Assembly: GCF_044324875.1 (NCBI RefSeq)
Contig: NZ_CP172185.1
Origin: Escherichia coli
GTDB taxonomy: Bacteria; Pseudomonadota; Gammaproteobacteria; Enterobacterales; Enterobacteriaceae
Length of the DNA: 64,000 nucleotides
Direction: 5' to 3' (one strand)
A program made the position numbers and the translations under genes. This document shows, piece after piece, positions 1 through 18,111 of this stretch. The notes under the pieces were generated by a model. The model had not been told where the DNA came from. It made no database searches and worked only from the letters and a program-made list of their open reading frames with translations. Position 1 is the stretch's first letter. Each line of letters opens with the position of its first letter.

Positions 1-807
1 GAAGGTGATGGCCATTATGATGGCGTAGACAAGGTAGTTTTGACCACCACTGAACTGGCTTTCAACGAACTCACGACCAGCACTGATCGCCATGATCAGA
101 TAAATCACCATCATCGTAAGAGAAATAGAGATGGAACTGTCGCGCAGGAAGCTCAGATTTTTGGGCAAATTCATCTCTTCGGTGGAGCGGGAACCTTTAC
201 CGCACACGCTGCCAATCCAGCCAGAAAGTACATATCCCAGAGTGCCAAAGTGACCAAAAGCAATGTCATCATTCCCCGTAATACGCTTCATATAGCGTTG
301 TGCTAATGCCGGGAAAAATGCCATCACAAGTCCCAGAATAAGAGAACCGGTAAAGACCAGTGATATACCTTCAAAACCAGCCACTGTCAGAATCACACCA
401 ATCATGCAGGCCATGTAAAATGTGTGGTGTCCGGTCAGGAAGATATATTTAAGGCGGGTAAAGCGGGCAACAATAATATTCGCCACCATACCAAATGCCA
501 TAATAAGGGCCGTCGATGCGCCATATTTTTCCAGCGCAATAGAAACAATAGCCTCATTATTCGGAATGATGCCCTGAATATTAAAGGCATGTTCAAACAT
601 ACTCCCAAGAGGATTTAACGAACCAACCAAAACAGTGGCACCACCGCCCAGTACAATAAAGCCGAGAATAGTTTTAATTGTACCTTTAACAACATCTGAA
701 AAAGATTTTTTCTGGGCAACCAGACCAATTAAGGCAATCAAGCCGACCAGTATCGCGGGCACTTTAAGTATATCAACAACAAAATTCAGCGTTTCAAGGA
801 TAAACAT
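1..807 (-). CDS. PTS ascorbate-family EIIC permease (UlaA/SgaT-like), 5' part only; gene continues past window start
   Basis: Manual reverse-strand translation from ATG at 807-805 gives MFILETLNFVVDILKVPAILVGLIALIGLV..., membrane protein resembling UlaA N-terminus; GAGGTGG SD upstream; gene lacks a Met-started complete ORF in the window. Confidence 0.7.
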   Translation of the reverse strand, partial: MFILETLNFVVDILKVPAILVGLIALIGLVAQKKSFSDVVKGTIKTILGFIVLGGGATVLVGSLNPLGSMFEHAFNIQGIIPNNEAIVSIALEKYGASTALIMAFGMVANIIVARFTRLKYIFLTGHHTFYMACMIGVILTVAGFEGISLVFTGSLILGLVMAFFPALAQRYMKRITGNDDIAFGHFGTLGYVLSGWIGSVCGKGSRSTEEMNLPKNLSFLRDSSISISLTMMVIYLIMAISAGREFVESQFSGGQNYLVYAIIMAITF

Positions 808-829
808 ATCCACCTCGCTTCAATTAAGG

Positions 830-1102
830 TTATTGTTTTGCTAACCAGTTACGCAGTTGCGTTTCGAGTTCATTAATATCAATGATGTTGTTGATAACCA
901 CCAACTGACTTTCCGGTACGCTGGCACTGGCAGCAATATCTTTGGCCATCACAAATAAATCGGCAGCCCCTGGCGTTGCTGATGAGAGATCGGAATGTTC
1001 CACTTCCGCCTCTATATCCATTTTTTTCAGAACTTTTTTAATATTCATTTCGACCATAAAACTACTACCAAGCCCTGAGCCACAAATAGCCATAATTTTC
1101 AT
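830..1102 (-). CDS. PTS EIIB component (UlaB/SgaB-like)
   Basis: ORF 830..1150; MKIMAICGSGLGSS matches the EIIB phospho-cysteine loop; start trimmed to the MKIMA codon. Confidence 0.7.
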   Translation of the reverse strand: MKIMAICGSGLGSSFMVEMNIKKVLKKMDIEAEVEHSDLSSATPGAADLFVMAKDIAASASVPESQLVVINNIIDINELETQLRNWLAKQ

Positions 1103-1180
1103 TATATTCACCATTTTAAGTTGAAGAAGTCCCATCACGCAACGGCGCAATGTTGTGAAAAGACTGAATTTATAATGTAA

Positions 1181-1630
1181 TCAGAACCGTGAAATTATCT
1201 TTTTTATTTCCTCCACATTGCGAGCCTGATGCAATTCATGTAAATCTTTTTCGCTGGAGAATAACTCAGCCAGTGCAGATATCATTTCGATATGACTGTG
1301 TTTGTCTGGTGCGGCAAGTAAAATGATAACATCTACAGGATCAAATTCCTCTGTATGAAAACTGACACCTTCTTCAAGTTTTAATAATGATAAACCTAAT
1401 CCTTTTGCCCCTTCTTCTGGTCGGGCATGCGGCATGGCCAGCCCGGGTGCCAGGACATAATAAGGCCCCAGTTTTTCATGTTGTGTCTTTATCGCACTGA
1501 GATAATCCGTCGTAATTATCTCTGCATCCAGTAACGGTCTGGCACAGATATCTAATGCCTGCTGCCAGGTTGCGGCATTCTTTCGTAATGCGATTGTTGA
1601 ATCAGAAAGCCAGATATTAAGCACTCCCAC
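1181..1630 (-). CDS. PTS EIIA component (UlaC/SgaA-like)
   Basis: ORF track 149 aa with GPYYVLAPGLAMPHARPEEG motif typical of ascorbate-type EIIA; apparent GTG start. Confidence 0.7.
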   Translation of the reverse strand: MGVLNIWLSDSTIALRKNAATWQQALDICARPLLDAEIITTDYLSAIKTQHEKLGPYYVLAPGLAMPHARPEEGAKGLGLSLLKLEEGVSFHTEEFDPVDVIILLAAPDKHSHIEMISALAELFSSEKDLHELHQARNVEEIKKIISRF

Positions 1631-1881
1631 CCCCTAATTTCTTATTTATATGACCAGAATGTATTCAAGTAACGACGGTATATCTGCGATCAATATCACA
1701 AAGATAGCGCTATCAGGAGGTATTGTTCGAATTTGTGATAGCGCTATCAAAATAGATTTCACTGATTAAATCCAGACTTATGGCAGATATTAAGAGGTAT
1801 ACTCTGCTACTGGCAGTGCAGGAAGCCGTTGATGATAAGTAATAAAAGATCTCCATATGTAGTCGCTGAGCAGGATTTTGT

Positions 1882-2901
1882 ATGGCAATAACCCGAAAAC
1901 GTCGTAGTACAGGTAAAGTCACTATTGCTGATGTCGCGCAACTCGCGGGAGTTGGCACAATGACTGTATCCAGAGCGTTACGCACTCCCGAACAAGTTTC
2001 AGATAAATTGAGGGAGAAGATTGAAGCCGCAGTTAATGAATTAGGGTATATGCCCAACCTCACTGCAAGCGCACTGGCATCGGCATCTTCACACACGATC
2101 GCAATGGTCGTGCCAAACCTGGCTGAAGCGGGATGCACGGAAATGTTTGCCGGGCTGCAACATGTGCTACAACCAGCGGGGTATCAAATAATCCTGGCTG
2201 AGTCACGCCATCGTCTGGAACAAGAAGAAAAACTGCTGGAAACCCTGCTGGCTTCTAATATCGCTGCAGCAATTTTGCTTAGTGTTGAGCATAATAGTAC
2301 CGTGCGTCACTTGCTCAAAAATGCCTCGATTCCTGTTATAGAAATCGGTGCCATTCGTACTGATCCGATAGATATCAACATTGGTATTGATAATGTTGCA
2401 GCAATGTTCGAGCTGACGGATATGCTGGTACAACGTGGTTATCAGAATATCGGTTTGCTATGCGCTAACCAGGAACAGTGGATCTTTCAGCAGCATTTAC
2501 AGGGATGGTATAAAGCTATGTTACGCCATCATATGTCTCCCAACCGTGTTATTAACGCTGCTCTGCCACCTGTTTTTTCCACCGGAGCATCACAACTACC
2601 GGAATTTTTGCTCGCATGGCCGGAACTGGATGCCCTGGTATGTGTGTCAGATGAGTTAGCCTGCGGTGTTCTCTATGAATGTCAACGAAGACGGATCAAA
2701 GTTCCAGACGAGCTCGCCGTAGTAGGATTTGGTGACAGTGACGTCAGCAAAGTTTGCCAACCATCATTAACAACAATGGCCGTTCCTCACAGGAAAATTG
2801 GTCTGGAAGCAGGAAATGTTTTGCTGGAACGAATTAAAGAAGGTAACTGGAGCAATCAGATATTCATTGAGCCCTGTTTATGTTTACGTGAAAGCTGCTG
2901 A
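1882..2901 (+). CDS. LacI/GalR-family transcriptional regulator
   Basis: 339 aa; N-terminal HTH VTIADVAQLAGVGTMTVSRAL, periplasmic-binding-like C-terminal domain; divergent from the PTS genes. Confidence 0.85.
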   Translation: MAITRKRRSTGKVTIADVAQLAGVGTMTVSRALRTPEQVSDKLREKIEAAVNELGYMPNLTASALASASSHTIAMVVPNLAEAGCTEMFAGLQHVLQPAGYQIILAESRHRLEQEEKLLETLLASNIAAAILLSVEHNSTVRHLLKNASIPVIEIGAIRTDPIDINIGIDNVAAMFELTDMLVQRGYQNIGLLCANQEQWIFQQHLQGWYKAMLRHHMSPNRVINAALPPVFSTGASQLPEFLLAWPELDALVCVSDELACGVLYECQRRRIKVPDELAVVGFGDSDVSKVCQPSLTTMAVPHRKIGLEAGNVLLERIKEGNWSNQIFIEPCLCLRESC

Positions 2902-3702
2902 AGCTGGGGGACTGGTATCTTTCAGCTCACTGATTTTGTTGCTGAACCTGATATATCCTTCGGTTTTCCACAACCAGGGGAAGGGTGTCATCATAAGGCG
3001 TGATGACACCCTGAATTCCCATCCTGTATCTGCAGAAAATTTTTCGTAAATAAATTAATTTAATAACTAAAAAGAAAATACAATAAGCAAAATATCAATT
3101 ACAGCATGTTCGTTTGTTTAAAGAACCTGCTGGTCCTGCCATTAATATTACCTGCTGATTGCTTCACATCCGGATTCCTCGCACTGCGCGCGGGTTATTG
3201 TTTCGTTTTCGGCCACGGGGTCGCCAGGGCTCTGTTTGCAGGCCATGATGGCCTGACCTGTACTGTTTCTCAGGCACTGAGATGTCCGTTTACGCCATTT
3301 GTTCCCGGATATCCTTAACCTCTGACGTTTGTTCCCTGCCCCTCTGTCTGATAACGAATACGCTCACAACGCACAGTACTGAACAATACCGACAACAACA
3401 TGTCTTACATGAAATTCGCTGTAACATCCACCGGAAAACATTTTCAGATATCGGATGAGGTACTACTTCCATTGACAGCGCGAGGTAACAAAATTGATGG
3501 TAACTCTGACCATTAACCGTAAACCGCAGGGTATTTTCAGTAAATCACCGGCAACGCCGCTGCAGGATAAAACGGACACAGCATACAAAATGAAGGCCGG
3601 TGACCAGATACCACAGTTGAACGATAAACAGAAACCTGCTGATAAAACACCGTGGCGACATGACAAAACGCCAGAGCAAAAACCGTAAGCGCATTATTCG
3701 TC

Positions 3703-4005
3703 TTGTGGAACTCTGGCCTGAGTCATTCAACCGGGAAAAAAACAAAACCACTTAAAGTGGGGATACCTGACGACCTGATACAGGATATCGCCATCCGAGA
3801 ACTGGCGTTTGGCGCTGGTACATTACATGCAGCAGTGGCGTCTTATGTGCAGTCTCCGTGCTATTACCGTGCGTTAATAGCAGGTGGCGCCCGTTACAAC
3901 CTGAACGGTCAGCCGTGCGGGGAAGTGACACCACAGGAACAGAAAGAGGCAGAGACCCGTTTAATGATGCTGAATGACCGACGAAAAGACAGAAAACCTC
4001 GTTGA
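3703..4005 (+). CDS. FinO/ProQ-like RNA-binding domain protein (possibly frameshifted with upstream ORF 3494..3688)
   Basis: KPLKVGIPDDLIQDIA...YNLNGQPCGEVTPQEQKEAETRL resembles the ProQ N-terminal FinO domain (RPLKIGIFQDL...DLDGNPCGELDEQ); track start is TTG. Confidence 0.4.
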   Translation: MWNSGLSHSTGKKTKPLKVGIPDDLIQDIAIRELAFGAGTLHAAVASYVQSPCYYRALIAGGARYNLNGQPCGEVTPQEQKEAETRLMMLNDRRKDRKPR

Positions 4006-4022
4006 CTGCACAACAGCGCTGT

Positions 4023-4619
4023 TCACTGAGCTGTAATCAATGTACAGCGCTGTACCGGGCGATGGGTAATACCGGTCACAACCGGTAACCCCAGAGACAA
4101 TGCAACTGTTTTTAACGCAATATACTGGCCGGATGTATCACCCCGGGCAGCCTGAAAACACCTTTCCACCCGGCATTGTCCGTCAGCACTTATCACCCGC
4201 CATGTCTGTTGCAATAAATCCACCCGTTGCGAACATTCTTCATCAACCGTGGCACTGACCCGTGGATGGCAAATGCTCGTCTGGCTGAGCAGCAACAGGC
4301 ATCGCATTGTTGCTCCTCCATGTTGTTCCCGCAACCAGCGTAATACCACCGGTGGTGCTGGACTGGCCGTGTGATTACGTTCAGTAATACGCTCGTGCAC
4401 CTGTCGGTAAAAGGAAGTACAGAATGCATGAATCTGTTGTCCGTTGATGTTTCCTTCTGCCGAATGGAGCGTGAAGTGAAATGCCAACAGATTTGGCCAG
4501 TGGTCCACCGCCTGCTGAACAAAACGCCGGATTTCCCCCGGCGCTGAAAGTAAGGCTTCGGTTATTTGCACTATTTTATCCCCGTTGAATTTTGTTAAGC
4601 CGGTGCAGACCAGACACAC
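4023..4619 (-). CDS. Inovirus Gp2-family (YagK/YfjJ-like) protein, paralog 1
   Basis: 198 aa; same overall architecture as the two downstream paralogs (LAFHFTLH ... MRCLLLLSQT). Confidence 0.45.
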   Translation of the reverse strand: MCLVCTGLTKFNGDKIVQITEALLSAPGEIRRFVQQAVDHWPNLLAFHFTLHSAEGNINGQQIHAFCTSFYRQVHERITERNHTASPAPPVVLRWLREQHGGATMRCLLLLSQTSICHPRVSATVDEECSQRVDLLQQTWRVISADGQCRVERCFQAARGDTSGQYIALKTVALSLGLPVVTGITHRPVQRCTLITAQ

Positions 4620-4848
4620 GGAAAGCGCACATCGACACCGGCACGGTACGATACAAACACCAGTGACTGGCGGGACGAAGGGAATGACGAATCAGTCAGG
4701 AAATGATGACAAACAGTTGGCTGGCCAGAGGGTGCCAGCAGAAAGATGAGCGGGAGTTGTCAGCGCCAGCACCAGGGACAGGGCTGATTTCCACAATACC
4801 AGCGCCGGCATTTCGCACATTGCCAGCGTACTGGCATTACAACACGTT

Positions 4849-5085
4849 TCATGCTGCTGCTCCTCGTGATTCCTCAATTCGCTGCTGCATCCACTGCTCC
4901 ACTTCACTTTTGTACCAGCGGCTGCTGCGCCCCAGTTTGATGGGTTTAGGGAAATGGCCTTCACTGATCAGCTTGTAAAACCATTTGTCGGTCATACCAG
5001 TGAAGCTGGTGATGTAGTTCATGTCGATCAGGGGATCGTCGGCACGCAGCAATACGCTGTCGTGACCTGTCATTGAGGTCAACAT
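4849..5085 (-). CDS. alpA: AlpA-family phage/island transcriptional regulator
   Basis: 78 aa; MNYITSFTGMTDKWFYKLISEGHFPKPIKLGRSSRWYKSEVEQWM is the AlpA HTH signature. Confidence 0.8.
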   Translation of the reverse strand: MLTSMTGHDSVLLRADDPLIDMNYITSFTGMTDKWFYKLISEGHFPKPIKLGRSSRWYKSEVEQWMQQRIEESRGAAA

Positions 5086-5153
5086 GGTCAGAATGTCCTC
5101 TGTGAGATTTATGAATGTTGGGCAAATGCGGGTGAATCTGCTGAGCTGAGCTT

Positions 5154-5756
5154 TCAGAGCTGGCCTGCTACGGGATACCAGGGATTACCGGCGAGGTAAC
5201 GGGCTTCCGGATCGCGCACACCACGACGATCGCGGGCGAAATCACTGAACGCCCATATCAGCTCTTTGAGTCTCTCTTCGCAGTCCGGTGAACAACTGTC
5301 CAGCACCACATCCCGGGTTATCTGTTTCTGGTACGGTGCTGCTTCACCCGGTGACGCGAAGCCCAGTACGTTGCTCCAGGCATCCAGAATCAACCGGTCC
5401 AGCTCAGGGCCGTCGAAATATTCCTGTCTGACGCACAGCACCACGTGGTATTCCGGTTTTTCAGGATGACGGGTCAGGAGCCAGCAGAGGTCGCGTCCGG
5501 GGGTTGCATTCATCAGCGCACTGACGGTTTCGATAAAGGCCATACCGAACCAGGTTTTTCTGTCGCTGAAGATGTTGCCATGTTCCCCCGGCAGACGAAG
5601 CAGGATCCGCCGTATCCTGGAGCCGGACTGCTCGCGCAACACACGGTTGAGAACGCCGATGATTTTGTTCTGATAAGATGGCCAGAAGGGCGCCATGCTA
5701 TAGTCGAAATAAGGGATAGCATTCATAAGATATGTTCCGTTATACGCAGCCCACAA
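5154..5756 (-). CDS. Inovirus Gp2-family (YfjI/YagK-like) protein, paralog 2
   Basis: 200 aa; island backbone position immediately after alpA. Confidence 0.55.
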   Translation of the reverse strand: MWAAYNGTYLMNAIPYFDYSMAPFWPSYQNKIIGVLNRVLREQSGSRIRRILLRLPGEHGNIFSDRKTWFGMAFIETVSALMNATPGRDLCWLLTRHPEKPEYHVVLCVRQEYFDGPELDRLILDAWSNVLGFASPGEAAPYQKQITRDVVLDSCSPDCEERLKELIWAFSDFARDRRGVRDPEARYLAGNPWYPVAGQL

Positions 5757-6082
5757 CGCGTCCTGCCCGTGGATGCGCTGACGTGTTATGGCTTGCGTAT
5801 GGGGTTGATGGAATAAGTGAAAAACCGCGGCAGAACGGGAAGATCAGGTAACCGACAAGGGACAGAACACCGGATGCAGGTTCAGAATGAATGATCTCCG
5901 TTGACTTCGGTTCACATCATTAAGCAGGACAGTAAGGTTTTACCGACGGAGTGTTTCCAGGAGCGAAAGCAGAGAAAAATACCGTTGCATGACTTCAGGA
6001 CGACTTTTTCAGAAAACGAGCTAAGGGCGTCAGCCAACGTCCTGTAGCATAAGCTCAGGCACCGGATGTCGTTTTACAGGGC

Positions 6083-6814
6083 TCACCTGCCATCCAGCAG
6101 ACGCCCCGGCCCACGACTGCAACCATAATTACGTTGCCCGGAACCGTCATGCTGCTTCGTCTCATATTTCACGAGATAACTGGCTCTGTTCCGGGCTTTC
6201 TGCAGCGCTTCCACATCACCACGCTTGATCCAGAGAACAGCGGCTTCACCCGGCTTTTTTTCTGAAGCCTTCCTGGTATCAGAACATCCACCCGACAAAG
6301 GCGTGTCATCGGAAGAAGGGCGAGCATCAGACGATGCTGGTTTACGGGAAGGCGTCCACCTGGAAAAATGGACCAGGCCATCGCCTTGCCAGGCCTCAAG
6401 ATGCAGGGCGCTGCACCATGCCTCCAGGATCATCGTCGCCAGCGAAGATGGTTCGCTGAAATCCCCTGGCGAGCACCAGGTATCTTTGTTGAGCAGCAAT
6501 ATCACGTGATAATGTTTCCTGCCTTTTTCCTTGCCAAACTCCCGACACCAGAAATAACGCAGAGTGGTTGCACGCACACGCTTGTTGGCACGTCGTTTTT
6601 TCCGCTGGTAAGCCTGGATTTTGGCTTTCAGGGATTCGAAAAAACGAGAAATCACCGCTGAATCCGGATCGGGATCCATGATGGTGACAGGCATATACTC
6701 AGGGAAACGTAAATCCACCCGGATTAACGAGACGGCACGGTGCTGCGACAGGGCACTGTCGAGAAGGCTGTCAAAACGGGATAACCAGTAAGCATTGTGT
6801 ATTGGTTGATTCAT
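6083..6814 (-). CDS. Inovirus Gp2-family (YfjJ/YagK-like) protein, paralog 3
   Basis: 243 aa; LIRVDLRFPEY ... HYHVILLLNKD pattern. Confidence 0.6.
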   Translation of the reverse strand: MNQPIHNAYWLSRFDSLLDSALSQHRAVSLIRVDLRFPEYMPVTIMDPDPDSAVISRFFESLKAKIQAYQRKKRRANKRVRATTLRYFWCREFGKEKGRKHYHVILLLNKDTWCSPGDFSEPSSLATMILEAWCSALHLEAWQGDGLVHFSRWTPSRKPASSDARPSSDDTPLSGGCSDTRKASEKKPGEAAVLWIKRGDVEALQKARNRASYLVKYETKQHDGSGQRNYGCSRGPGRLLDGR

Positions 6815-6849
6815 GATGAGAGATCTCCGTTGATTTGGATTGACTTCAC

Positions 6850-8390
6850 ATCATTAATCACCGCGGTAAAACTTTACGGCATCATGTCATTAAGCAATGC
6901 TACAACTCTCTGATTAAGAGTGATTGAAACGGAACAAACCATCCCGGAACGAAAAGATAATCCTGCACACAGCAGCAAAACACGCAACAACAGCATGAAT
7001 GGATTTAAAAACGACATGGACGACGAGAAAAGCCTGAAGGGAAAAGGATCCACAGAACATTCGAACAAAACACCAGAAACGCAACCAGAACGCTTCCTGG
7101 CAATGCAAATCAACAACAACGCCAAAACCTACAGCTTAATCACACAACTCAATCACGAATGCGAATGACACGTTTAAAACCTGTTTACAGATAACGCCGT
7201 AACACGATCATCCCCATCACCATCAGAATCGATTTTCTCATCCCGAAAATGTTACGTTTCACTACGCACCATAAAAACGATTAACCATCGATAACGTAAA
7301 TCTCATCTGAATCAAAAAACCAAAACCAATCATCACACTTTCGCAATGCAAGAAGAAAAACCACATCATGACGAAAACAATGACCTTACATGAAAAAGCA
7401 AAACGTCAGGAATCGTTAATGCCTCAATCTGATTGTTATCAAAACATCCAGAAAGTCGTTTAACAGAATCGTCGTAAGCACATCGAAAAGAACGTCAGAT
7501 CACCTCAGGAAAGTTCGGGTTGATTTAGCGTAAAGATACTTTTCTCAGCTTAACGTCGAAACACAAACCAAAAACCACAAACAACCAAAGCTCAGGAAAG
7601 GTTAAACGTCACATCAGTAAAATCGAATAGCAGATTGATTGCTTAAACAGGAAAGATTGTTTTACAGCAGCATTAAACTGATTTAGTTAACGTAAAATCA
7701 GAACTGACAGGTTTACTAACTTGGATGTGTATCAGTTCAAAAATGTGTACAGCAATGCGTAATGAAACACATTTAAAGGAGATTAATGGGAAAAGTGTGT
7801 AAATGCGTAAACATGCACTAATGAATCACTGAAGGAATACATACAAAACGACTTAATGAAAACATAAAAGGACCTAATGGAAAAGGTGTATATAATACCA
7901 TATCCGACATTCTCAACATCTTAAGACATCCATGCAGACTGAATGTTGGTTTCAGTTTTTCACGGTAAGCATGAATCTTTTCTGTTCAAAAGCAGAGCAG
8001 ATTTACTCTGGAATTATTTTTCTTACTCCGTATTCTGTACAGCAAAAACTTGTGCTAACTTTACAGCAAACCATCATAATCAGCGTCTGTAGTCCCATCG
8101 CTTTACCCCATGAAAGTGAATCCATATGATGTGAGAGAGATAAGTCATCGTATCCGGTAAACACTGCTTACTATAACATAAGATCATTCAGTCAGTTTTA
8201 TCTCTGAACTGACGATTATGGCATGCTCATTTATATGGCTCACAGAGGAGTGTTATTATCCGTAAGCTTTAATCATCAAATCACATGACCATACCAAACT
8301 GGCGCTATATCAGCTCATTTGACGCTCATTCCCTTTAGATTTCTTTATGTGTTTTTTGTCGATAATTAAAATGTAATATAAATTTAATAT
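6850..8390. other. About 1.5 kb ORF-poor, strand-skewed (A+C-rich top strand) intergenic region with recurrent short motifs
   Basis: No ORF of 60 aa or more on either strand between about 7170 and 7930; recurring AACGT(C/A)A..ATC, TCAGGAAAG and TAATGRA motifs. Confidence 0.6.
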
Positions 8391-8397
8391 TTTCACA

Positions 8398-9621
8398 TCA
8401 TAAACACCATTTAAAACCATCATCCTGAACATCATACAACAATATATTTTTACTAAAGCATGAATTGTATATTTCTATTAATTCAGGAAAATTATCAGGA
8501 TTCACCTTTAAATTCAACTGAATGTTACACTTAATTTCACTCAGCAGTTCTTCATGCGTGGATTTTATTATCCCTTTATCATAATCTATAAATACACACA
8601 TGTTTTTCATGAATTCAAACCCTTTTCCTGTATACAGTTTGATGAATGCCACAAGAGCAAACATTTCAAGATGCAGCCATAATGCCACGTGAGTTTTTCG
8701 CAAAGTATAAAAAATTGAATTCGCCACTTTTTTACTTATTGCTCTTTTGTACTGTGAGTGCGCCAGATTCAGTAGTGGCAATTCTCTCTCGATAAATGAA
8801 AGTGAAAAAGGCGGGTAAATTGATGTCGGAAATATTTCAGGTCTTATGATATTTTCGATTTCCACCATAAATCTATCCATAGAACGAAAATCATTTTCTT
8901 TTTTTATTCTGGTATAGAGACCGCCTTTATTCCTTACTGCGACTTTTTTTCGTGCTATCCCCCCCAACATTTCCTCTAATTGTTTATTTATCTTCGTATC
9001 ATTAAATACAACCATTCTTCTTATCATCCTGGGAAGGATGATAATATCAGAGCTTGAATCACTTGAACGGCAATTATTATTGATCCATGCAACTTCAAGT
9101 TGAAGTATCGGAACATTAAATTCTCTGGGGTTAATAACTCTCTGATATTGTTTTTTGTATGCGTTTTCATTAAGATATTCTCTGCTGTAGAGAAACTTAT
9201 AGCAATATAATCTGACAATATCCTTTATGTAAGATTTAAATGAGTCACCTGTAACAGATATATTTTTTCTTCTCAGTAACTCCTGTGTATTGAGCCATTC
9301 CCGTGACCGGAGTACTCCATTATGAAGACTTTTTCTTACTTGCTTTGAATTGCGCAATTGATGTAATATTTTTGCGTCCTCAACAATTCTCTTTCCCGTT
9401 TGATTTCTTGCAGCATCTATTACTCTGTCAAATATCTCCCGGTCCAGACTTTTGTCATATTTACTGATTATACGACAAATATTCCTGACCCGACGGTTCT
9501 CTTTATTTCGTTTCCATAACTGATAATGATCATCACATAACCTCAGGGCATTTGCCTCATCAAATTCTGAAACAGGATTGCTGCATTTTTTATTCCGACA
9601 GATACCTTTGTTTTTAGCCAT
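8398..9621 (-). CDS. Hypothetical protein, 407 aa, low-GC orphan
   Basis: Long ATG-initiated ORF with purine-rich SD; Lys/Arg/Asn-rich; N-terminal Cys-x4-Cys ... Cys-x2-His; no family recognised. Confidence 0.6.
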   Translation of the reverse strand: MAKNKGICRNKKCSNPVSEFDEANALRLCDDHYQLWKRNKENRRVRNICRIISKYDKSLDREIFDRVIDAARNQTGKRIVEDAKILHQLRNSKQVRKSLHNGVLRSREWLNTQELLRRKNISVTGDSFKSYIKDIVRLYCYKFLYSREYLNENAYKKQYQRVINPREFNVPILQLEVAWINNNCRSSDSSSDIIILPRMIRRMVVFNDTKINKQLEEMLGGIARKKVAVRNKGGLYTRIKKENDFRSMDRFMVEIENIIRPEIFPTSIYPPFSLSFIERELPLLNLAHSQYKRAISKKVANSIFYTLRKTHVALWLHLEMFALVAFIKLYTGKGFEFMKNMCVFIDYDKGIIKSTHEELLSEIKCNIQLNLKVNPDNFPELIEIYNSCFSKNILLYDVQDDGFKWCL

Positions 9622-9721
9622 ACTCTTCTTCCCGTCAATGGAAAAATTTTCACGTCCATATTACCTGACTGAGAGGCCGGATTAATGTGATCCGGTTCAG
9701 TGAAATCAACAGGATAACGGT

Positions 9722-10606
9722 ATGTCATTCAGCCATTCTTCCCTCTCCGCACACGTAAAGTCACATCTGACCTTTCTTCCTGAAGAAATTCGCCAGAAAA
9801 TCCTTGAACATCTTCGCAGCGTCATTCAGTACGAACCCGTTATTGGCATTATGGGTAAATCCGGTGCCGGAAAAAGCAGCCTGTGCAATGCCATTTTTCA
9901 GTCCCGTGTCTGCGCCACGCATCCGCTGAACGGCTGCACCCGTCAGGCTCATCGTCTTACCTTTCAGCCCGGTGAACGAAGAATGACGCTGGTCGATCTG
10001 CCCGGCACTGGCGAAACACCACAGCATGATCAGGAATACCGGGCACTTTACAGTCAGTTACTGCCCGAACTGGATCTGATTATCTGGATCCTGCGGGCTG
10101 ATGAACGTGCGTATGCTGCCGACATCGCCATGCATCAGTTTTTACTGAATGAAGGTGCCGATCCCTCGCGTTTTCTGTTTGTTCTCAGCCATGCCGATCG
10201 CATCCACCCGGCTGAAGAATGGAACAACCAGAGCAGCACGCCATCCCGTCAGCAGGAACTCTCACTGGCGACGGTGACAGCCCGGGTGGCAACCCTGTTC
10301 CCTTCATCATTTCCGGTACTCCCCATAGCCGCTCCTGCCGGCTGGAATCTTCCGGCATTTGTGTCTCTGATGATCCACGCCCTGCCACCACAGGCAACCA
10401 GCGCGGTTTATTCGCATATCCGGAATGAAAAGCGCACTGCGCAGGATCAGCAACACGCACAGCAGGCTTTTGGTGACGCCATCGGCCAGAGTTTTGACGC
10501 TGCCATTGCCCGGTTCAGCTTTCCGGCCTGGATGCTGCAGCTTCTGCGCAAAGCCCGTGATCGCATTATCCGCCTGCTGATCACACTGTGGGATCGCCTG
10601 TTCTGA
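9722..10606 (+). CDS. YeeP/YfjP-family GTPase (50S ribosome-binding GTPase-like)
   Basis: 294 aa; P-loop GIMGKSGAGKSS and DLPGTGE switch motif. Confidence 0.85.
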   Translation: MSFSHSSLSAHVKSHLTFLPEEIRQKILEHLRSVIQYEPVIGIMGKSGAGKSSLCNAIFQSRVCATHPLNGCTRQAHRLTFQPGERRMTLVDLPGTGETPQHDQEYRALYSQLLPELDLIIWILRADERAYAADIAMHQFLLNEGADPSRFLFVLSHADRIHPAEEWNNQSSTPSRQQELSLATVTARVATLFPSSFPVLPIAAPAGWNLPAFVSLMIHALPPQATSAVYSHIRNEKRTAQDQQHAQQAFGDAIGQSFDAAIARFSFPAWMLQLLRKARDRIIRLLITLWDRLF

Positions 10607-10791
10607 ATGTCCCCGCTTTTTGACCGGCCCCGGCGATAACCAGGAAACGCATTTCCGGTTGCGTCACCACAATGCTGAAGGGCTTCGGTAAACCCTCATT
10701 CATTTCATCCATCAGGCCGCGTCTTCTCCGTGAGACGCGGCTTTTTCATTGATTACGTCATTCAGTCTTAACCACTGATAAGGAGCAAAGT

Positions 10792-11610
10792 ATGCGATTA
10801 GCCAGTCGTTTTGGTTATGCGAACCAGATACGCCGTGACCGTCCGCTGACCCGTGAAGAGCTGATGCACCATGTGCCCGGGATTTTCGGGGAAGATAAAC
10901 ACACCTCCCGGAGCCGGAACTATACATACATCCCCACCATCACCGTGCTGGAAAGCCTGCAGCGGGAAGGCTTTCAGCCATTCTTCGCCTGCCAGACCCG
11001 CGTACGTGACCCGGGTCGCCGGGGGTATACCAAACACATGCTGCGTCTGCGCCGTGACGGGGAGATAAACGGACAACATGTCCCTGAAATTATTCTGCTC
11101 AACTCTCATGACGGTACCTCCAGCTACCAGATGCTGCCGGGTTACTTCAGGTTCGTCTGCCAGAACGGATGCGTCTGCGGTCAGTCTCGGGGGGAAGTGC
11201 GTGTTCCGCACCGGGGAAATGTGGTGGACAGAGTCATTGAAGGGGCTTACGAGGTGGTGGGCGTGTTTGACCGGATAGAGGAGAAGCGTGATGCCATGCA
11301 GTCGCTGGTCCTGCCGCCACCGGCACGCCAGGCGCTGGCACAGGCGGCACTGACTTACCGTTATGGTGACGAACATCAGCCCGTCACCACCGCCGACATT
11401 CTGACACCACGACGCCGGGAGGATTACGGTAAGGACCTGTGGAGTGCTTATCAGACCATCCAGGAGAATATGCTGAAAGGCGGGATTTCCGGTCGCAGTG
11501 CAAAAGGAAAACGTATCCATACCCGGGCCATTCACAGCATTGATACCGATATAAAACTCAACCGCGCATTGTGGGTGATGGCAGAAACGCTGCTGGAGAG
11601 CATGCGCTGA
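10792..11610 (+). CDS. DUF932-family protein (YfjQ/YafZ-like)
   Basis: 272 aa; position after the GTPase gene as in CP4-type islands. Confidence 0.7.
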   Translation: MRLASRFGYANQIRRDRPLTREELMHHVPGIFGEDKHTSRSRNYTYIPTITVLESLQREGFQPFFACQTRVRDPGRRGYTKHMLRLRRDGEINGQHVPEIILLNSHDGTSSYQMLPGYFRFVCQNGCVCGQSRGEVRVPHRGNVVDRVIEGAYEVVGVFDRIEEKRDAMQSLVLPPPARQALAQAALTYRYGDEHQPVTTADILTPRRREDYGKDLWSAYQTIQENMLKGGISGRSAKGKRIHTRAIHSIDTDIKLNRALWVMAETLLESMR

Positions 11611-11691
11611 TGCCGTTTCCCTGAGTGAGGGAATCATTCAGCTTTCGTTCCTGAAAAACACACATTTATTTGTTATTTAAGGCGTTATCTC

Positions 11692-12171
11692 ATGAAAACC
11701 GTTTCTCAGAATACCCCCACAATTTATTCAGCTACAACACCAGAGAATAATCCGCCTCAGTTGGTTGCCAGCCTCGTCCCTGATGAACAGCGCATCAGCT
11801 TCTGGCCGCAGCATTTTGGCCTCATTCCACAGTGGGTGACCCTGGAGCCCCGTGTCTTCGGCTGGATGGACCGTCTGTGCGAAGACTACTGCGGTGGTAT
11901 CTGGAATCTGTACACCCTGAACAACGGCGGGGCATTTATGGCCCCCGAACCGGATGATGATGATGACGAAACATGGGTACTGTTCAATGCCATGAACGGT
12001 AACCGCGCTGAAATGAGCCCGGAAGCCGCCGGCATTGCCGCCTGTCTGATGACGTACAGTCATCACGCCTGCCGTACGGAGTGTTATGCCATGACGGTTC
12101 ATTATTACCGTCTGCGGGATTACGCCCTGCAGCATCCGGAATGCAGCGCCATTATGCGCATCATTGACTGA
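11692..12171 (+). CDS. Antirestriction protein, KlcA/ArdB family (YfjX/YafX-like)
   Basis: 159 aa; acidic DDDDDE stretch, conserved island order. Confidence 0.75.
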   Translation: MKTVSQNTPTIYSATTPENNPPQLVASLVPDEQRISFWPQHFGLIPQWVTLEPRVFGWMDRLCEDYCGGIWNLYTLNNGGAFMAPEPDDDDDETWVLFNAMNGNRAEMSPEAAGIAACLMTYSHHACRTECYAMTVHYYRLRDYALQHPECSAIMRIID

Positions 12172-12186
12172 AAGGGGGCCGGAACA

Positions 12187-12663
12187 ATGCAACAGATTTC
12201 CTTTCTGCCCGGAGAAATGACAACCAGAGAGCGCAGCCTCATTCAGCGGGCCCTGAAAGCCCTGGACCGCCATCTTCATGAACCCGGCGTGGCCTTCACC
12301 TCCACGCATGCGGCACGGGAATGGCTGATTCTGAACATGGCGGGACTGGAGCGTGAAGAATTCCGGGTGCTGTATCTGAATAACCAGAATCAGCTGATTG
12401 CCGGTGAAACCCTCTTCACCGGCACCATCAACCGCACGGAAGTCCATCCCCGGGAAGTGATTAAACGCGCCCTGTACCACAATGCCGCTGCCGTGGTGCT
12501 GGCGCACAATCACCCGTCCGGTGAAGTCACACCCAGCAAGGCAGACCGCCTTATCACGGAACGTCTGGTACAGGCGCTGGCCCTGGTGGATATCCGGGTG
12601 CCGGACCATCTGATAGTCGGTGGCAGCCAGGTTTTCTCCTTTGCCGAACATGGTCTGCTTTAA
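12187..12663 (+). CDS. RadC-like JAB-domain protein (YeeS/YfjY-like)
   Basis: 158 aa; JAMM-like HNHPSGEVTPSKAD motif. Confidence 0.85.
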   Translation: MQQISFLPGEMTTRERSLIQRALKALDRHLHEPGVAFTSTHAAREWLILNMAGLEREEFRVLYLNNQNQLIAGETLFTGTINRTEVHPREVIKRALYHNAAAVVLAHNHPSGEVTPSKADRLITERLVQALALVDIRVPDHLIVGGSQVFSFAEHGLL

Positions 12664-12725
12664 CCCGTCACAACCACATCACACCTGTTTTCACTTTTAT
12701 CTTCTGTCTTCAGAGGTATCCCATT

Positions 12726-12947
12726 ATGAAAATCATCACCCGTGGTGAAGCCATGCGTATTCACCAACAGCATCCTGCATCCCGTCTTTTTCCGTTCTGT
12801 ACCGGCAAATACCGCTGGCACGGCAGCACTGAAACGTATACCGGTCGTGAAGTGCAGGATATTCCCGGTGTGCTGGCTGTGTTTGCAGAACGTCGTAAGG
12901 ACAGTTTTGGCCCGTATGTCCGGCTGATGAGCGTCACCCTGAACTGA
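12726..12947 (+). CDS. YeeT-family (DUF987) small protein
   Basis: 73 aa, MKIITRGEAMRIHQQHP...; position before the antitoxin gene. Confidence 0.75.
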   Translation: MKIITRGEAMRIHQQHPASRLFPFCTGKYRWHGSTETYTGREVQDIPGVLAVFAERRKDSFGPYVRLMSVTLN

Positions 12948-12961
12948 GTCAGGGCATTCTG

Positions 12962-13594
12962 ATGAGCAGAATTATCACCATCACAGTGTATACGCTGGAT
13001 GAACTTTCCTGCCCGGCACGGGAAAAAGCCCGCGACGGGTACCGTCAGCATCATGCTGACAGCAACTGGTATGAAAACGTGTATGAGGACGTCAGGGAGG
13101 TCTGTGGCATTTTCGGAATTGACCTCTGCCAGCGTGTTATCCGTCTCAGCAACGGCAGGTTTATGGAAGAGCCGTGCATCTGGTTCAGCGGATTCTGCAG
13201 CCAGGGACGGAGCCTGTTTTGAAGGACGCTGGCACTGGCAGTCAGCAACAACCAGGAGAGTCCGGGAGTATGCCCCGCAGAACCGTGAGCTTCATCGTAT
13301 CGCGGATGCCCTGCAGGCGGTGCAGAAACGTAACTTCTGGCAACTGCAGGCTGAAATCCACCACCGGGGACGTTACTGCCATCCGTTATCACTGTTACCC
13401 GGAACAGTCCGACTGGTCAGGCTATGACAGCCGATGCGGAAGCCGCTGTCAGCGAAGCCCTGCGCGACCTGGCCTTCTGGCTGTACCGTCAACTGGAAAA
13501 CGAGTACGACCAGATGACCTCAGACGCCGCTGTGGATGAGGCCATTCTCATCAATGCATACATCTTCACCGAAACCGGTCAGCGCACCGGCTGA
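12962..13594 (+). pseudogene. Apparently disrupted gene: protein-like segments in three reading-frame pieces (12962-13222, about 13200-13427, 13424-13594)
   Basis: All three segments translate to plausible protein sequence but are separated by frame changes; the last piece (57 aa) is below the ORF-track threshold. Confidence 0.35.
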
Positions 13595-13643
13595 CCTGTC
13601 ATCGTTAAACCATTCTTAACCACTTTTCAGAGAGGATTTTATC

Positions 13644-14012
13644 GTGTCAGACACACTCTCCGGGATAACTCATCCCGACGACAATCACGACCGCCCCTGG
13701 TGGGGGCTTCCCTGCACAGTGAGGCCCTGTTTTGGCGCCCGTCTGGTGCAGGAGGGTAACCGCCTGCATTACCTTGCCGACCGCGCCGGCATCAGAGGCC
13801 GGTTCAGCGATGCGGATGCATACCATCTGGACCAGGCCTTTCCGCTGCTGATGAAACAACTGGAACTCATGCTCACCAGCGGTGAACTGAATCCCCGCCA
13901 TCAGCATACCGTGACACTGTATGCGAAGGGGCTGACCTGCGAAGCCGACACCCTCGGCAGTTGTGGTTACGTTTATCTGGCTGTTTATCCGACGCCCGAA
14001 ACGAAAAAGTAA
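13644..14012 (+). CDS. Type IV antitoxin, CbeA/YeeU/YfjZ family
   Basis: 122 aa, near-identical to recalled YeeU (MSDTL.G.T.PDDNHDRPWWGLPCTV...TPETKK). Confidence 0.9.
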   Translation: MSDTLSGITHPDDNHDRPWWGLPCTVRPCFGARLVQEGNRLHYLADRAGIRGRFSDADAYHLDQAFPLLMKQLELMLTSGELNPRHQHTVTLYAKGLTCEADTLGSCGYVYLAVYPTPETKK

Positions 14013-14102
14013 ACCACCGGAATAACCTTCTGCTCCGGCCAGGTGTTTTCACCACGCCACTCTCCCCATAATTTAATCTCTCATATCAGGAAAATCTTCA
14101 GT

Positions 14103-14513
14103 ATGAAATTATTACCCGACACACATGTACGGGAGGCATCGTGCTGCCCGTCTCCCGTCACCATCTGGCAGACACTGCTCATCCGTCTGCTGGACCAGCA
14201 CTATGGCCTCACACTGAATGACACACCGTTCGCTGATGAACGTGTGATTGAGCAGCATATTGAGGCCGGCATTTCACTGTGCGATGCGGTGAACTTTCTC
14301 GTTGAAAAATACGCACTGGTACGTACCGACCAGCCGGGATTCAGCGCAGGAGCCCCGTCGCAGTTAATCAACAGCATCGATATTCTCCGGGCCCGCCGGG
14401 CAACAGGCCTGATGACACGTAATAACTACAGAATGGTAAATAACATTACCCTGGGTAGCATCCGGGGGCGAAACGATGAAACTTTCCCTGACGCTGGAAG
14501 CCGACAGCATTAA
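14103..14513 (+). CDS. Type IV toxin, CbtA/YeeV/YpjF family
   Basis: Start trimmed to MKLLPDT; [67 protein letters not shown] matches YeeV. Confidence 0.85.
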
Positions 14514-14898
14514 CGTGCAGGCACTGAACATGGGGCGCATTGTCGTTGACATTGATGGTGTAAATCTCGCTGAACTGATTAACAAGGTCGCTGAATACGG
14601 TTATTCACTCCGCGTGGTGGATGAACGTGACGCTACCGAAACACCGGCGACTTCTGCCAGCTCTCATCAGTTGCCGGAAGACAATACAGTGATACAGAGC
14701 GTGATGCCATTAACCACTGAAACAGCGCTGGATATCCTCATTGCGTGGCTGCAGGACAATATCGACTGCGGGTCCGGAATTATTTTCGACAACGATGAGG
14801 ATAAAACGGATTCGGCAGCACTGCTGCCCTGTATTGAACAGGCCAGGGAGGATATCCGTACCCTGCACCAACTGCAACTTCTGCACCAGAACCGGTGA
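14476..14898 (+). CDS. YeeW-like protein
   Basis: 140 aa; overlaps the 3' end of the toxin gene, as yeeW follows yeeV in CP4-44. Confidence 0.55.
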
Positions 14899-14982
14899 AT
14901 CTCACTCACCAGACTTCATTCTCCTGACGCCAGCCTGAACAGAGCTGGCGTTTTCGTTTATAAACAGAAAGGAAACCCCATA

Positions 14983-15768
14983 ATGTCATATATCACAATC
15001 CCCCACCCGAACGCGGTCAACGGACATACAGCCGTTATCTGTTCCACAAGTATCAGACACATCCTGGCTGTACGAAAGAGTACACTGCTGCAAATCGACA
15101 CGCTTATCCGGCAACTGACAGAAATCTCAGCACTGACGGAAAGTATTGGCGGTAAAGCCGCCCCGGACTGGGCCATGAAACAGGATTTTCGCTGTGGCTG
15201 CTGGCTGAAGGAGAAACAGGAAACCGCAATGAAAGCCATTACCCGGAATCTTGACCGCGAAATCTGGCGTAACCTGATGCAGCGTTCCGGGATGCTTTCC
15301 TTAATGGATGCACAGGCACGTGATACATGGTACAGGTCACTGGAATATGATAATTTTCCGGAAATCAGTGAAGCGAACATTCTGAGCACATTTGAACAAC
15401 TGCACCAGAATAAGGATGAAGTGTTTGAGCGGGGGGTGATCAACCTCTTCAAAGGGCTGAGCTGGGATTACAAAACCAACTCACCCTGTAAATTTGGCAG
15501 TAAAATTATCGTCAACAATCTGGTGAGGTGGGACCAGTGGGGATTTCATCTTATCAGTGGAATGCAGGCAGATCGCCTGGCTGACCTGGAAAGAATGTTG
15601 CATCTGCTCAGCGGTAAACCGATCCCCGACAACCGGGGAATATCACCATTAATCTGGATGACCACATACAGTCCGTTCAGGGTAAAGGACGCTATGAAGA
15701 TGAGATGTTCATCATTAAATACTTTAAGAAGGGAGCTGCACACATCACTTTCAAAAGGCTGGAGCTGA
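14983..15768 (+). CDS. Hypothetical protein, last gene of the island (possibly DUF4942-like)
   Basis: 261 aa ATG-initiated ORF; family assignment from memory is tentative. Confidence 0.5.
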   Translation: MSYITIPHPNAVNGHTAVICSTSIRHILAVRKSTLLQIDTLIRQLTEISALTESIGGKAAPDWAMKQDFRCGCWLKEKQETAMKAITRNLDREIWRNLMQRSGMLSLMDAQARDTWYRSLEYDNFPEISEANILSTFEQLHQNKDEVFERGVINLFKGLSWDYKTNSPCKFGSKIIVNNLVRWDQWGFHLISGMQADRLADLERMLHLLSGKPIPDNRGISPLIWMTTYSPFRVKDAMKMRCSSLNTLRRELHTSLSKGWS

Positions 15769-15935
15769 TTGACAGAATTAACGATATAATAGCCAGGCAC
15801 TTTCCTTCTGTGCTCTCAGCCTGACCCCGAGTTTGATTCCCTTTCGATATCAAAAGGGACTGCGGGTACAAAAGAGGGTACATCTTTCACCAAACCAAAC
15901 AAAATAAACCAATATCAACACGATAGAAGCATTCT

Positions 15936-15957
15936 TCGATTCCGAGTCCGGCACCAA
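15936..15957 (+). repeat. 3' fragment of tRNA-Phe (pheU attachment-site remnant)
   Basis: TTCGATTCCGAGTCCGGCACCA matches the pheU 3' end (one G fewer); upstream sequence does not match the rest of the tRNA. Confidence 0.7.
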
Positions 15958-15967
15958 ATTCATATAA

Positions 15968-15993
15968 ACGGACCTCCACGGAGGTCCGTTTTT
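15968..15993 (+). terminator. Rho-independent terminator (native pheU terminator)
   Basis: CGGACCTCC-AC-GGAGGTCCG stem followed by TTTTT. Confidence 0.6.
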
Positions 15994-16572
15994 CGTTTCA
16001 GGACGCCACAATTTAAGCGTTCTGCCTAAAAATCATTTCTACCGAACTCAACCAGATTCTCCCCACATCACCAGCAATTTGCGGGCATATCCCAATTCGG
16101 GGAAATGTGTTCCTGAGCTATAGCACTGACTGACGTGAAATGTCGTGCGGCCCCGTGATGCTGTTGAACGTCAAATGACGTCATCAGGAGCGTAACGCAT
16201 CCATAAAGCACAACATCGGGCAGAACGCCGACTGATGAGATTTTCTGAATGAGAACAAAGAGAAATGTATCAGTCCGCTTGCTCATGCAAAGACTAACAA
16301 TCCATAAAAATAGTAAGCGCTCCGGGCAATTTTCCATGGATTATTTTCTGAACATTTTTCTTTGGCAAAGATGATGAATTTTGATGGTAAGGAATATTAC
16401 TTCTGGTTCTCAGTAAAATCCTTTCGTAATACTATGTGATCAAGAAGTTTATGGCTGGTAAAAATAACGTCTTGCATTCACCAATAATATGTAAATAAAC
16501 CCATCTATAGATGGTAAAAATAGGTTGTGGCAATTATCATTGCATCATTCCCTTTTCGAATGAGTTTCTATT

Positions 16573-18111
16573 ATGCAACAACCTGTAGTTCGCGTTGGCG
16601 AATGGCTTGTTACTCCGTCCATAAACCAAATTAGCCGCAATGGGCGTCAACTTACCCTTGAGCCGAGATTAATCGATCTTCTGGTTTTCTTTGCTCAACA
16701 CAGTGGCGAAGTACTTAGCAGGGATGAACTTATCGATAATGTCTGGAAGAGAAGTATTGTCACCAATCACGTTGTGACGCAGAGTATCTCAGAACTACGT
16801 AAGTCATTAAAAGATAATGATGAAGATAGTCCTGTCTATATCGCTACTGTACCAAAGCGCGGCTATAAATTAATGGTGCCGGTTATCTGGTACAGCGAAG
16901 AAGAGGGAGAGGAAATAATGCTATCTTCGCCTCCCCCTATACCAGAGGCGGTTCCTGACACAGATTCTCCCTCCCACAGTCTTAACATTCAAAACACCGC
17001 AACACCACCTGAACAATCCCCTGTTAAAAGCAAACGATTCACTACCTTTTGGGTATGGTTTTTTTTCCTGTTGTCGTTAGGTATCTGTGTAGCACTGGTA
17101 GCGTTTTCAAGTCTTGATACACGTCTTCCGATGAGCAAATCGCGTATTTTGCTCAATCCACGCGATATTGACATTAATATGGTAAATAAAAGTTGTAACA
17201 GCTGGAGTTCCCCGTATCAGCTCTCTTACGCGATAGGCGTGGGTGATTTGGTGGCGACATCACTTAACACCTTCTCCACCTTTATGGTGCATGACAAAAT
17301 CAACTACAACATTGATGAACCGAGCAGTTCCGGTAAAACATTATCTATTGCGTTTGTTAATCAGCGCCAATACCGTGCTCAACAATGCTTTATGTCGGTA
17401 AAATTGGTAGACAATGCAGATGGTTCAACCATGCTGGATAAACGTTATGTCATCACTAACGGTAATCAGCTGGCGATTCAAAATGATTTACTCCAGAGTT
17501 TATCAAAAGCGTTAAACCAACCGTGGCCACAACGAATGCAGGAGATGCTCCAGCAAATTTTGCCTCATCGTGGTGCGTTATTAACTAATTTTTATCAGGC
17601 TCATGATTATTTACTGCATGGCGATGATAAATCATTGAACCGTGCCAGTGAATTACTAGGTGAGATTGTTCAATCATCCCCCGAATTTACCTACGCGAGA
17701 GCAGAAAAAGCATTAGTTGATATCGTGCGCCATTCTCAACATCCTTTGGATGAAAAACAATTAGCAGCACTGAACACAGAAATAAATAACATTGTTACAC
17801 TACCGGAATTGAATAACCTGTCCATTATATATCAAATAAAAGCGGTCAGTGCTCTGGTAAAAGGTAAAACAGATGAGTCTTACCAGGCGATAAATACTGG
17901 CATTGATCTTGAAATGTCCTGGCTAAATTATGTGTTGCTTGGCAAGGTTTATGAAATGAAGGGGATGAACCGGGAAGCAGCTGATGCATATCTCACCGCC
18001 TTTAATTTACGCCCAGGGGCAAACACCCTTTACTGGATTGAAAATGGTATATTCCAGACTTCTGTTCCTTATGTTGTACCTTATCTCGACAAATTTCTCG
18101 CTTCAGAATAA
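16573..18111 (+). CDS. cadC: CadC, membrane-bound ToxR-like activator of cadBA
   Basis: 512 aa, matches E. coli CadC. Confidence 0.95.
   Translation: MQQPVVRVGEWLVTPSINQISRNGRQLTLEPRLIDLLVFFAQHSGEVLSRDELIDNVWKRSIVTNHVVTQSISELRKSLKDNDEDSPVYIATVPKRGYKLMVPVIWYSEEEGEEIMLSSPPPIPEAVPDTDSPSHSLNIQNTATPPEQSPVKSKRFTTFWVWFFFLLSLGICVALVAFSSLDTRLPMSKSRILLNPRDIDINMVNKSCNSWSSPYQLSYAIGVGDLVATSLNTFSTFMVHDKINYNIDEPSSSGKTLSIAFVNQRQYRAQQCFMSVKLVDNADGSTMLDKRYVITNGNQLAIQNDLLQSLSKALNQPWPQRMQEMLQQILPHRGALLTNFYQAHDYLLHGDDKSLNRASELLGEIVQSSPEFTYARAEKALVDIVRHSQHPLDEKQLAALNTEINNIVTLPELNNLSIIYQIKAVSALVKGKTDESYQAINTGIDLEMSWLNYVLLGKVYEMKGMNREAADAYLTAFNLRPGANTLYWIENGIFQTSVPYVVPYLDKFLASE

Follow-up and report, generated by a model that had tools for sequence, protein, structure and literature searches.

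CP4-type islands are among the commonest accessory elements of Escherichia coli and carry virulence, metabolic and defence cargo. The present analysis concerns one such island in a 64-kb stretch of an E. coli genome (contig NZ_CP172185.1; hereafter the window), and in particular three genes, here named A, B and C, that lie together with the regulatory gene alpA between positions 4023 and 6814. The gene families and the type of island are already known and largely annotated. New here are the placement of B, and more firmly of A, in the YagK/YfjJ superfamily, the catalytic degeneracy of both, and the occurrence of the trio with alpA across genera. The K-12 islands CP4-6 and CP4-57 are of the same type as the island in the window, with which they share alpA, GTPase, DUF932, antirestriction, RadC and CbtA/CbeA genes. 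In agreement with the original prediction for this DNA, which credited K-12 islands of this type with one or two genes of the inovirus Gp2 family, CP4-57 has one member (yfjJ) and CP4-6 one (yagK). Unlike the window, neither island has an A-type or a B-type gene, and K-12 is not representative for this gene set. With respect to the K-12 proteins YagK and YfjJ, C is a clear member of the family, and B and A are remote relatives at the profile level. The layout differs as well: in CP4-57, alpA precedes yfjI and yfjJ and shares the orientation of the GTPase arm, whereas in the window the genes are transcribed from the minus strand in the order C, B, alpA, A, divergently from that arm.

Islands of similar content have been described in Pseudomonas. 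These islands, integrated at the transfer-messenger RNA (tmRNA) gene, contain intY, RadC, YqaJ, an inovirus Gp2-like gene and alpA, and AlpA and the Gp2-like gene were reported as the core of these mobile elements, which are transferred by jumbo-phage transduction (10.1101/2024.08.29.610337). They resemble the island in the window in that the Gp2-like gene adjoins alpA far from the integrase, in that RadC belongs to the core, and in being mobile islands without transfer machinery of their own; they differ in genus, in integration site and in carrying one Gp2-like gene (10.1101/2024.08.29.610337).

At the level of protein fold, the appropriate comparison is with HUH endonucleases, namely parvovirus and adeno-associated virus (AAV) Rep, SIRV1 ORF119, pMV158 RepB, inovirus gpII, Helitron and the IS200/IS605 transposases. 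Unlike these enzymes, the window proteins have no attached helicase or other domain, the activity of C is predicted only, and no solved structure is detectably similar in sequence (searches of the PDB with the A, B and C family profiles matched none). In contrast to inovirus gpII, the trio has no phage structural genes nearby and is surrounded by island genes; the RefSeq name 'inovirus Gp2' reflects domain similarity only. The HUH-type fold can also persist without its His pair and Tyr, as in the origin-binding domain of SV40 large T antigen and the DNA-binding domain of papillomavirus E1, where it is kept as a DNA-binding module. Those are domains of eukaryotic viral helicases, whereas B and A are stand-alone bacterial proteins for which DNA binding is proposed by analogy.

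Gene C encodes a canonical member of the family. The protein matches Pfam YagK_YfjJ_C (PF11726) with 128.3 bits (E 3.6e-37; gathering threshold 25.8 bits) and Pfam REP_ORF2-G2P with E 1.9e-10. In the alignment of the canonical family, RVDLR, H-Y-H and the Tyr of 'RAxYLAKxxTK' are conserved, both His residues at 90% or more and the Tyr in all full-length members, and C retains these catalytic-type motifs intact (RVDLR, H101-Y-H103 and Y213 within RASYLVK). Its predicted model, with a predicted local distance difference test score (pLDDT) of 75.5, shows a Rep-type alpha/beta, HUH-nuclease-like fold. Judged by its motifs, C could plausibly nick DNA. An insert of about 45 aa (residues ~151-192), of low complexity, rich in Ser, Pro and Asp and modelled with pLDDT <50, separates the sheet from the Tyr helix; it is typical of E. 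coli C-type proteins and absent from K-12 YfjJ and from the Brenneria and Providencia homologues. Isolate ApSLC23 (L003) has essentially the same C as the window and an A that differs by 3%.

Scans with Pfam, NCBIfam, PHROGs and PADLOC returned nothing for A or B. Against PF11726, B scored 11.5 bits (E 0.3), under the gathering threshold, and it is named 'hypothetical protein' by RefSeq. Apart from E. coli copies and fragments, a HMMER scan of 1.84e9 representatives yielded two full-length relatives of B only, from Pseudocitrobacter and Citrobacter (36% and 32% identity), one of which (P0192) matches PF11726 at 1.4e-10. Profile-profile comparison with hhalign aligned B with the canonical family at 97.6-97.8% probability (E 3e-12 to 8.5e-13), at best over 165 columns, and the B-family profile found K-12 YfjJ at 5.7e-11 and the window's own C at 4e-7. 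The HUH column reads E-Y-H in B and E/C/F-Y-H across the B family, and the catalytic Tyr column is occupied by Ser, inside the family's conserved 'SD[FM][AV]RDR' block. On these alignments, B is a divergent, catalytically degenerate protein of the YagK/YfjJ superfamily.

Gene A encodes a very distant relative. It gave no match to PF11726 at E values up to 10. All 120 homologues among the matches listed (71-100% identity) carry a precomputed assignment to PF27752 (UCP030791), as do the syntenic A-type proteins of Citrobacter and Pseudocitrobacter, which share 25-29% identity with A (blastp 3e-11 and 1e-10). When the alignment contained E. coli sequences only, hhalign linked A to the canonical family at E 0.0012 and a probability of 15-19%, and found nothing between A and B; none of 200 column-shuffled controls reached the score of this shallow comparison with the canonical family (28.3 versus a mean of 13.7, standard deviation 2.4). 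After addition of the two syntenic homologues, the A family aligned with the canonical family at 96.3% probability (E 1.6e-9) over 145 collinear columns, and with B at 65% (E 6e-5). The A family and the canonical family share an 'LRYxW ... hLLLN' block, in which the Citrobacter member comes closer to the canonical form. At the motif column, A has T-M-R in E. coli and no His pair, and its Citrobacter counterpart has one His; a Tyr is not conserved in the A family at the column aligned with the catalytic one. In the A model (pLDDT 67.5), helices and strands follow the same order as in the model of C. A search of the BFVD with this model produced weak matches only (E >0.005), and species-representative genomes scanned with A-family peptide patterns contained two near-identical loci only. 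Taken at the level of profiles, A is a very distant member of the YagK/YfjJ superfamily, belonging to the UCP030791 (PF27752) family; the latter is curated separately from PF11726, and the link between them rests on the profile-profile comparison made here. An identification of A with YfjH, the neighbour of alpA in CP4-57, was rejected, as the A profile matches no CP4-57 open reading frame (ORF). RefSeq labels A homologues variously as hypothetical, UCP030791, YagK/YfjJ domain-containing or inovirus Gp2 family proteins. Between the window and strain FDAARGOS_1287 (L006), A is 100% identical.

The original prediction held that the three proteins share one architecture. In profile-profile comparison this stands, as remote homology, and the alignment of the A family with the canonical family ties A to the other two; in pairwise BLASTP and in Pfam, which recognizes C only, it does not. 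BLASTP between pairs of A, B and C gave E values of 0.21, 0.023 and 0.003, none of them significant, and the weak A-C and B-C matches land on the same segment of C, HYHVILLLNKD. Since the three share under about 20% identity with one another, their divergence must be ancient, and the profiles point to highly diverged paralogues within the one superfamily. Nor are the three equivalent, for the HUH and Tyr motifs are retained only in C. Both B and A differ from the PF11726 family in falling under the Pfam threshold and in having no catalytic residues; with the His pair and Tyr lost, they are predicted to be unable to nick DNA by the HUH mechanism. We are highly confident of these statements on the identity and evolution of the trio.

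Part of the region 4000-6850 is matched in 3,007 of 5,426 complete E. coli genomes, at a median of two and a maximum of twelve places in each. The whole block is at least 80% complete in 480 of these genomes, and the arrangement A-alpA-B occurs in about 1,400, a figure implied by an evenly spaced ranking. A and B are intact in sequence clusters with hundreds to thousands of members. The genes of Citrobacter and Pseudocitrobacter are arranged as alpA, canonical gene, B-type gene, A-type gene, with the GTPase gene divergent, so that the E. coli arrangement differs only by the position of alpA between B and A; synteny is kept across genera at 25-36% protein identity, and on the contigs encoding the distant B relatives a UCP030791 gene directly follows the B-type gene. 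Because the C-B-A set occurs in Citrobacter, Pseudocitrobacter and many E. coli, the trio and alpA form a unit that is old and conserved, not the unusual triplication that had been predicted. All four genes are coding and under purifying selection, the pairwise ratios of nonsynonymous to synonymous substitution rates (dN/dS) being 0.31-0.47 for A, 0.07-0.14 for alpA, 0.03-0.27 for B and 0.27-0.31 for C. What lies upstream of B varies. In some islands this slot is taken by another YagK/YfjJ-type gene, of 188 aa ('Cvar'), and in some the order is C, cargo, YfjI, Cvar, B, alpA, A, with an intact ProQ/FinO gene; one metagenome-assembled genome contains four family members. The identity of the window's A to that of FDAARGOS_1287 and of its C to that of ApSLC23 marks the module as a recombinant mosaic.

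The features of the locus are collected in Table 1. The ORF list places A, B and C exactly where the original prediction had put them, all on the minus strand, and together with Pfam it bears out the description of three genes in the same orientation with alpA between the first and the second. At near-identical E. coli loci RefSeq uses the shorter versions of A and B (starts at 4571 and 5726, respectively). The AlpA ORF matches Pfam Phage_AlpA (PF05930) with 40.8 bits (E 2e-10; gathering threshold 21 bits) as well as HTH_17, and weakly the excisionase domain TIGR01764.

Table 1. Features of the alpA arm and its surroundings (positions in the window; aa, amino acids; nt, nucleotides).
Feature	Position	Strand	Description	Remark
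Gene A	4023-4619	-	198 aa, GTG start	182 aa if GTG 4571 used
Gene B	5154-5756	-	200 aa, TTG start	190 aa if ATG 5726 used
Gene C	6083-6814	-	243 aa, ATG start	canonical YagK/YfjJ ('inovirus Gp2 family')
alpA	4849-5085	-	78 aa, AlpA-family helix-turn-helix regulator or excisionase-like	
ProQ/FinO-domain gene	3494-4005	+	frames 3494-3688 and 3703-4005	convergent with A
C leader	6810-6877	-	TTAATGATGTGA box, Shine-Dalgarno GGAG, ATG	one copy of a ~65-nt direct repeat
Second leader copy	5881-5943	-	box and GGAG kept, ATG changed to CTG	~160-190 nt upstream of B start
alpA-to-A spacer	4620-4848	-	first ~85 nt past alpA stop nearly invariant	
Divergent CP4-type arm	9722-15768	+	YeeP-like GTPase, DUF932, antirestriction, RadC-like JAB, DUF987, CbeA/CbtA, DUF4942	Pfam

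The surroundings have the composition of a CP4-type backbone, with a GTPase/DUF932/antirestriction/RadC/DUF987/CbeA-CbtA arm beside the alpA module. This plus-strand right arm, identified from Pfam matches and from the annotation of the 99%-identical B771 locus, is followed by cadC (16573), cadB and cadA; to the left of the block lie cargo genes for a sugar phosphotransferase system, a transketolase and a LacI-type regulator. A mosaic CP4-type island lies at the cadC/pheU locus, and the region forms its conserved left (alpA) arm. The original prediction had placed A upstream of alpA, at a position where an integrase would be expected. With all four genes on the minus strand, A is in fact downstream of alpA. 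Its place is not that of an integrase either: the alpA arm is divergent from the GTPase-to-CbtA arm, and in the Pseudomonas islands of similar content the Gp2-like gene and alpA are found at the end opposite the integrase (10.1101/2024.08.29.610337). No integrase ORF is present between 1 and 16.5 kb and no tRNA gene in the 64-kb window, and a 99%-identical relative, strain B771, has in front of cadC just an integrase fragment of 160 nt. If the island has an integrase end, it is outside the window. In B771 (L004/L009, NZ_CP120557.1 3243465-3298104) one end of the island is at tRNA-Sec (selC), where it has an integrase, and the other is at cadC (pheU side); these ends imply that islands at two tRNA loci recombined or that an inversion took place between them.

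We favour, with a probability of roughly 0.5, an explanation of the locus as a CP4-type arm in which three HUH-like paralogues and alpA serve as a module of the island. In CP4-57 and in phage-inducible chromosomal island (PICI)-type elements, proteins of the AlpA family act as activators of excision or of operon expression. AlpA would act likewise here, activating excision or the operon and so turning the island on, and C would nick a specific site on the excised island, leading to rolling-circle replication or single-strand transfer; the nicked single strand might then pass to the transfer machinery of a helper. B and A would act as non-catalytic DNA-binding or regulatory partners. Precedents are SV40 T antigen and papillomavirus E1, whose origin-binding domains have an inactivated Rep fold, and dimeric HUH enzymes with active sites built in trans. 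The right arm holds genes characteristic of DNA entering a new cell (antirestriction and RadC, and also DUF932), and related E. coli islands (TAI) have been proposed to use conjugative helpers via oriT (10.64898/2026.01.13.699239). The mechanism in which C nicks and B and A are non-catalytic partners is proposed tentatively, its chances being somewhat short of even. A stronger version, for which we would claim a small chance, holds that one catalytic and two pseudo-enzyme HUH paralogues form an AlpA-switched hetero-oligomeric machine for nicking and origin recognition in the replication or single-strand transfer of CP4-type islands. If true, such a machine would explain the movement of very common E. 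coli islands that have no recognizable relaxase. The leads are that B and A appear to be catalytically dead relatives of an adjacent Rep-like gene and that the trio and alpA are kept across genera, and the resulting testable hypothesis is that of one nickase with two non-catalytic partners. As it stands, the work improves the annotation of a gene present in thousands of genomes and reveals no new kind of system.

Several points weigh against a working transfer module. No nick site or origin was identified in the island, and the literature on YagK/YfjJ, 'inovirus Gp2', PF11726, UCP030791 and PF27752 holds annotation-level mentions and no functional study. The predicted structures cover A and C only, and the model of A resembles palm and GGDEF folds as well as HUH Reps. 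With no intact integrase nearby, this copy of the island may be immobile; moreover, the neighbouring ProQ/FinO gene is frameshifted in the window.

The loss of catalytic residues from B and A would also suit decaying relics of duplicated Rep genes, in which case only C and alpA matter. An internal stop in A of one relative, the 'hypothetical' label given to B by RefSeq and the dN/dS of A, which is just moderately low, agree with decay. We nevertheless think it quite unlikely, given that A and B remain intact in such large sequence clusters, that dN/dS stays below 0.5 and falls to 0.03 for B, that both families retain invariant motifs of their own at 25-36% identity, and that the two genes are still adjacent in Citrobacter and Pseudocitrobacter. 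Alternatively, the trio might act in interference or defence against filamentous or other single-stranded DNA phages or plasmids, as decoys or competitors of a foreign Rep protein or origin. The family is similar to phage replication initiators such as inovirus gpII, defence cargo is common in such islands, and inactive paralogues could serve as dominant-negative decoys. A, B and C match no PADLOC model, however, the trio is conserved backbone beside alpA rather than variable cargo, and C has retained its full catalytic set, all of which makes a defensive role doubtful.

Two further alternatives concern the origin of the trio. Were A not a true YagK/YfjJ homologue, its resemblance to the family would be due to a generic RNA-recognition-motif (RRM)- or palm-like fold combined with chance sequence matches. 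This is very improbable in view of the alignment obtained with the syntenic homologues (96.3%, E 1.6e-9, 145 collinear columns) and the failure of all 200 shuffles to reach even the shallow-alignment score; in addition, the shared 'LRYxW ... hLLLN' block becomes more canonical in Citrobacter, the A gene stays beside B-type and C-type genes, and some A members are themselves named 'inovirus Gp2 family' by RefSeq. A recent, strain-specific tandem triplication of a Gp2-family gene, in line with the triplication seen in the original prediction, could draw on the same orientation and close spacing of the genes and on the ~65-nt leader repeated upstream of C and B. It is refuted by pairwise identities at noise level and by the presence of the set in hundreds to thousands of E. 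coli genomes and in other genera, and the B profile, moreover, is nearer to K-12 YfjJ than to the neighbouring C; we leave it next to no chance.

The leader repeats upstream of C and B (repeat families D1 and D2) are 76-77% identical. In the B-side copy, the CTG is in frame with B and is then followed by a stop. The TTAATGATGTGA 12-mer of these leaders has four copies in the 64-kb window, against 0.36 expected, all on the minus strand and within 2.5 kb; the two further copies are at 7609-7620 and 8393-8404. The box is kept upstream of B in loci L001-L004, L006, L007 and L011 and upstream of C-type genes in the relatives examined, and it is not conserved upstream of Cvar, yfjJ and yagK. The copy before B represents either a regulatory element common to both genes or what is left of a duplicated gene start. 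Its interpretation as the scar of a lost Cvar/YfjI segment was rejected, homology with Cvar-bearing islands continuing through to ~5962.

Alignment and consensus folding of six loci showed that the first ~85 nt of the spacer between alpA and A are almost invariant while the flanking genes differ by 3-12%, and that they contain two possible hairpins; a further segment of ~65-80 nt is present or absent among relatives. The spacer may function as a DNA site or encode a regulatory RNA. Rfam gave no match on positions 1-17000 of the window, and scans for promoter and terminator patterns remained at background level.

A 407-aa ORF (8398-9621, minus strand) lies in the AT-rich DNA that separates the two island arms (33-40% GC; 7000-9500). 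This ORF has no Pfam, NCBIfam or PADLOC match, is a pseudogene in some relatives and is probably cargo. In the ProQ/FinO gene, Pfam ProQ is matched on 3703-4005 (6.4e-16). RefSeq describes the gene as 'frameshifted' in every close relative examined, and it is intact (158 aa) in strain PapRG-04-4; the split gene could be a conserved pseudogene or reflect a recurrent or programmed frameshift. At its junction with A, a 17-nt inverted repeat at 4013-4053 (88% complementary, 7-nt loop) overlaps the 3' end of A and may be a bidirectional terminator.

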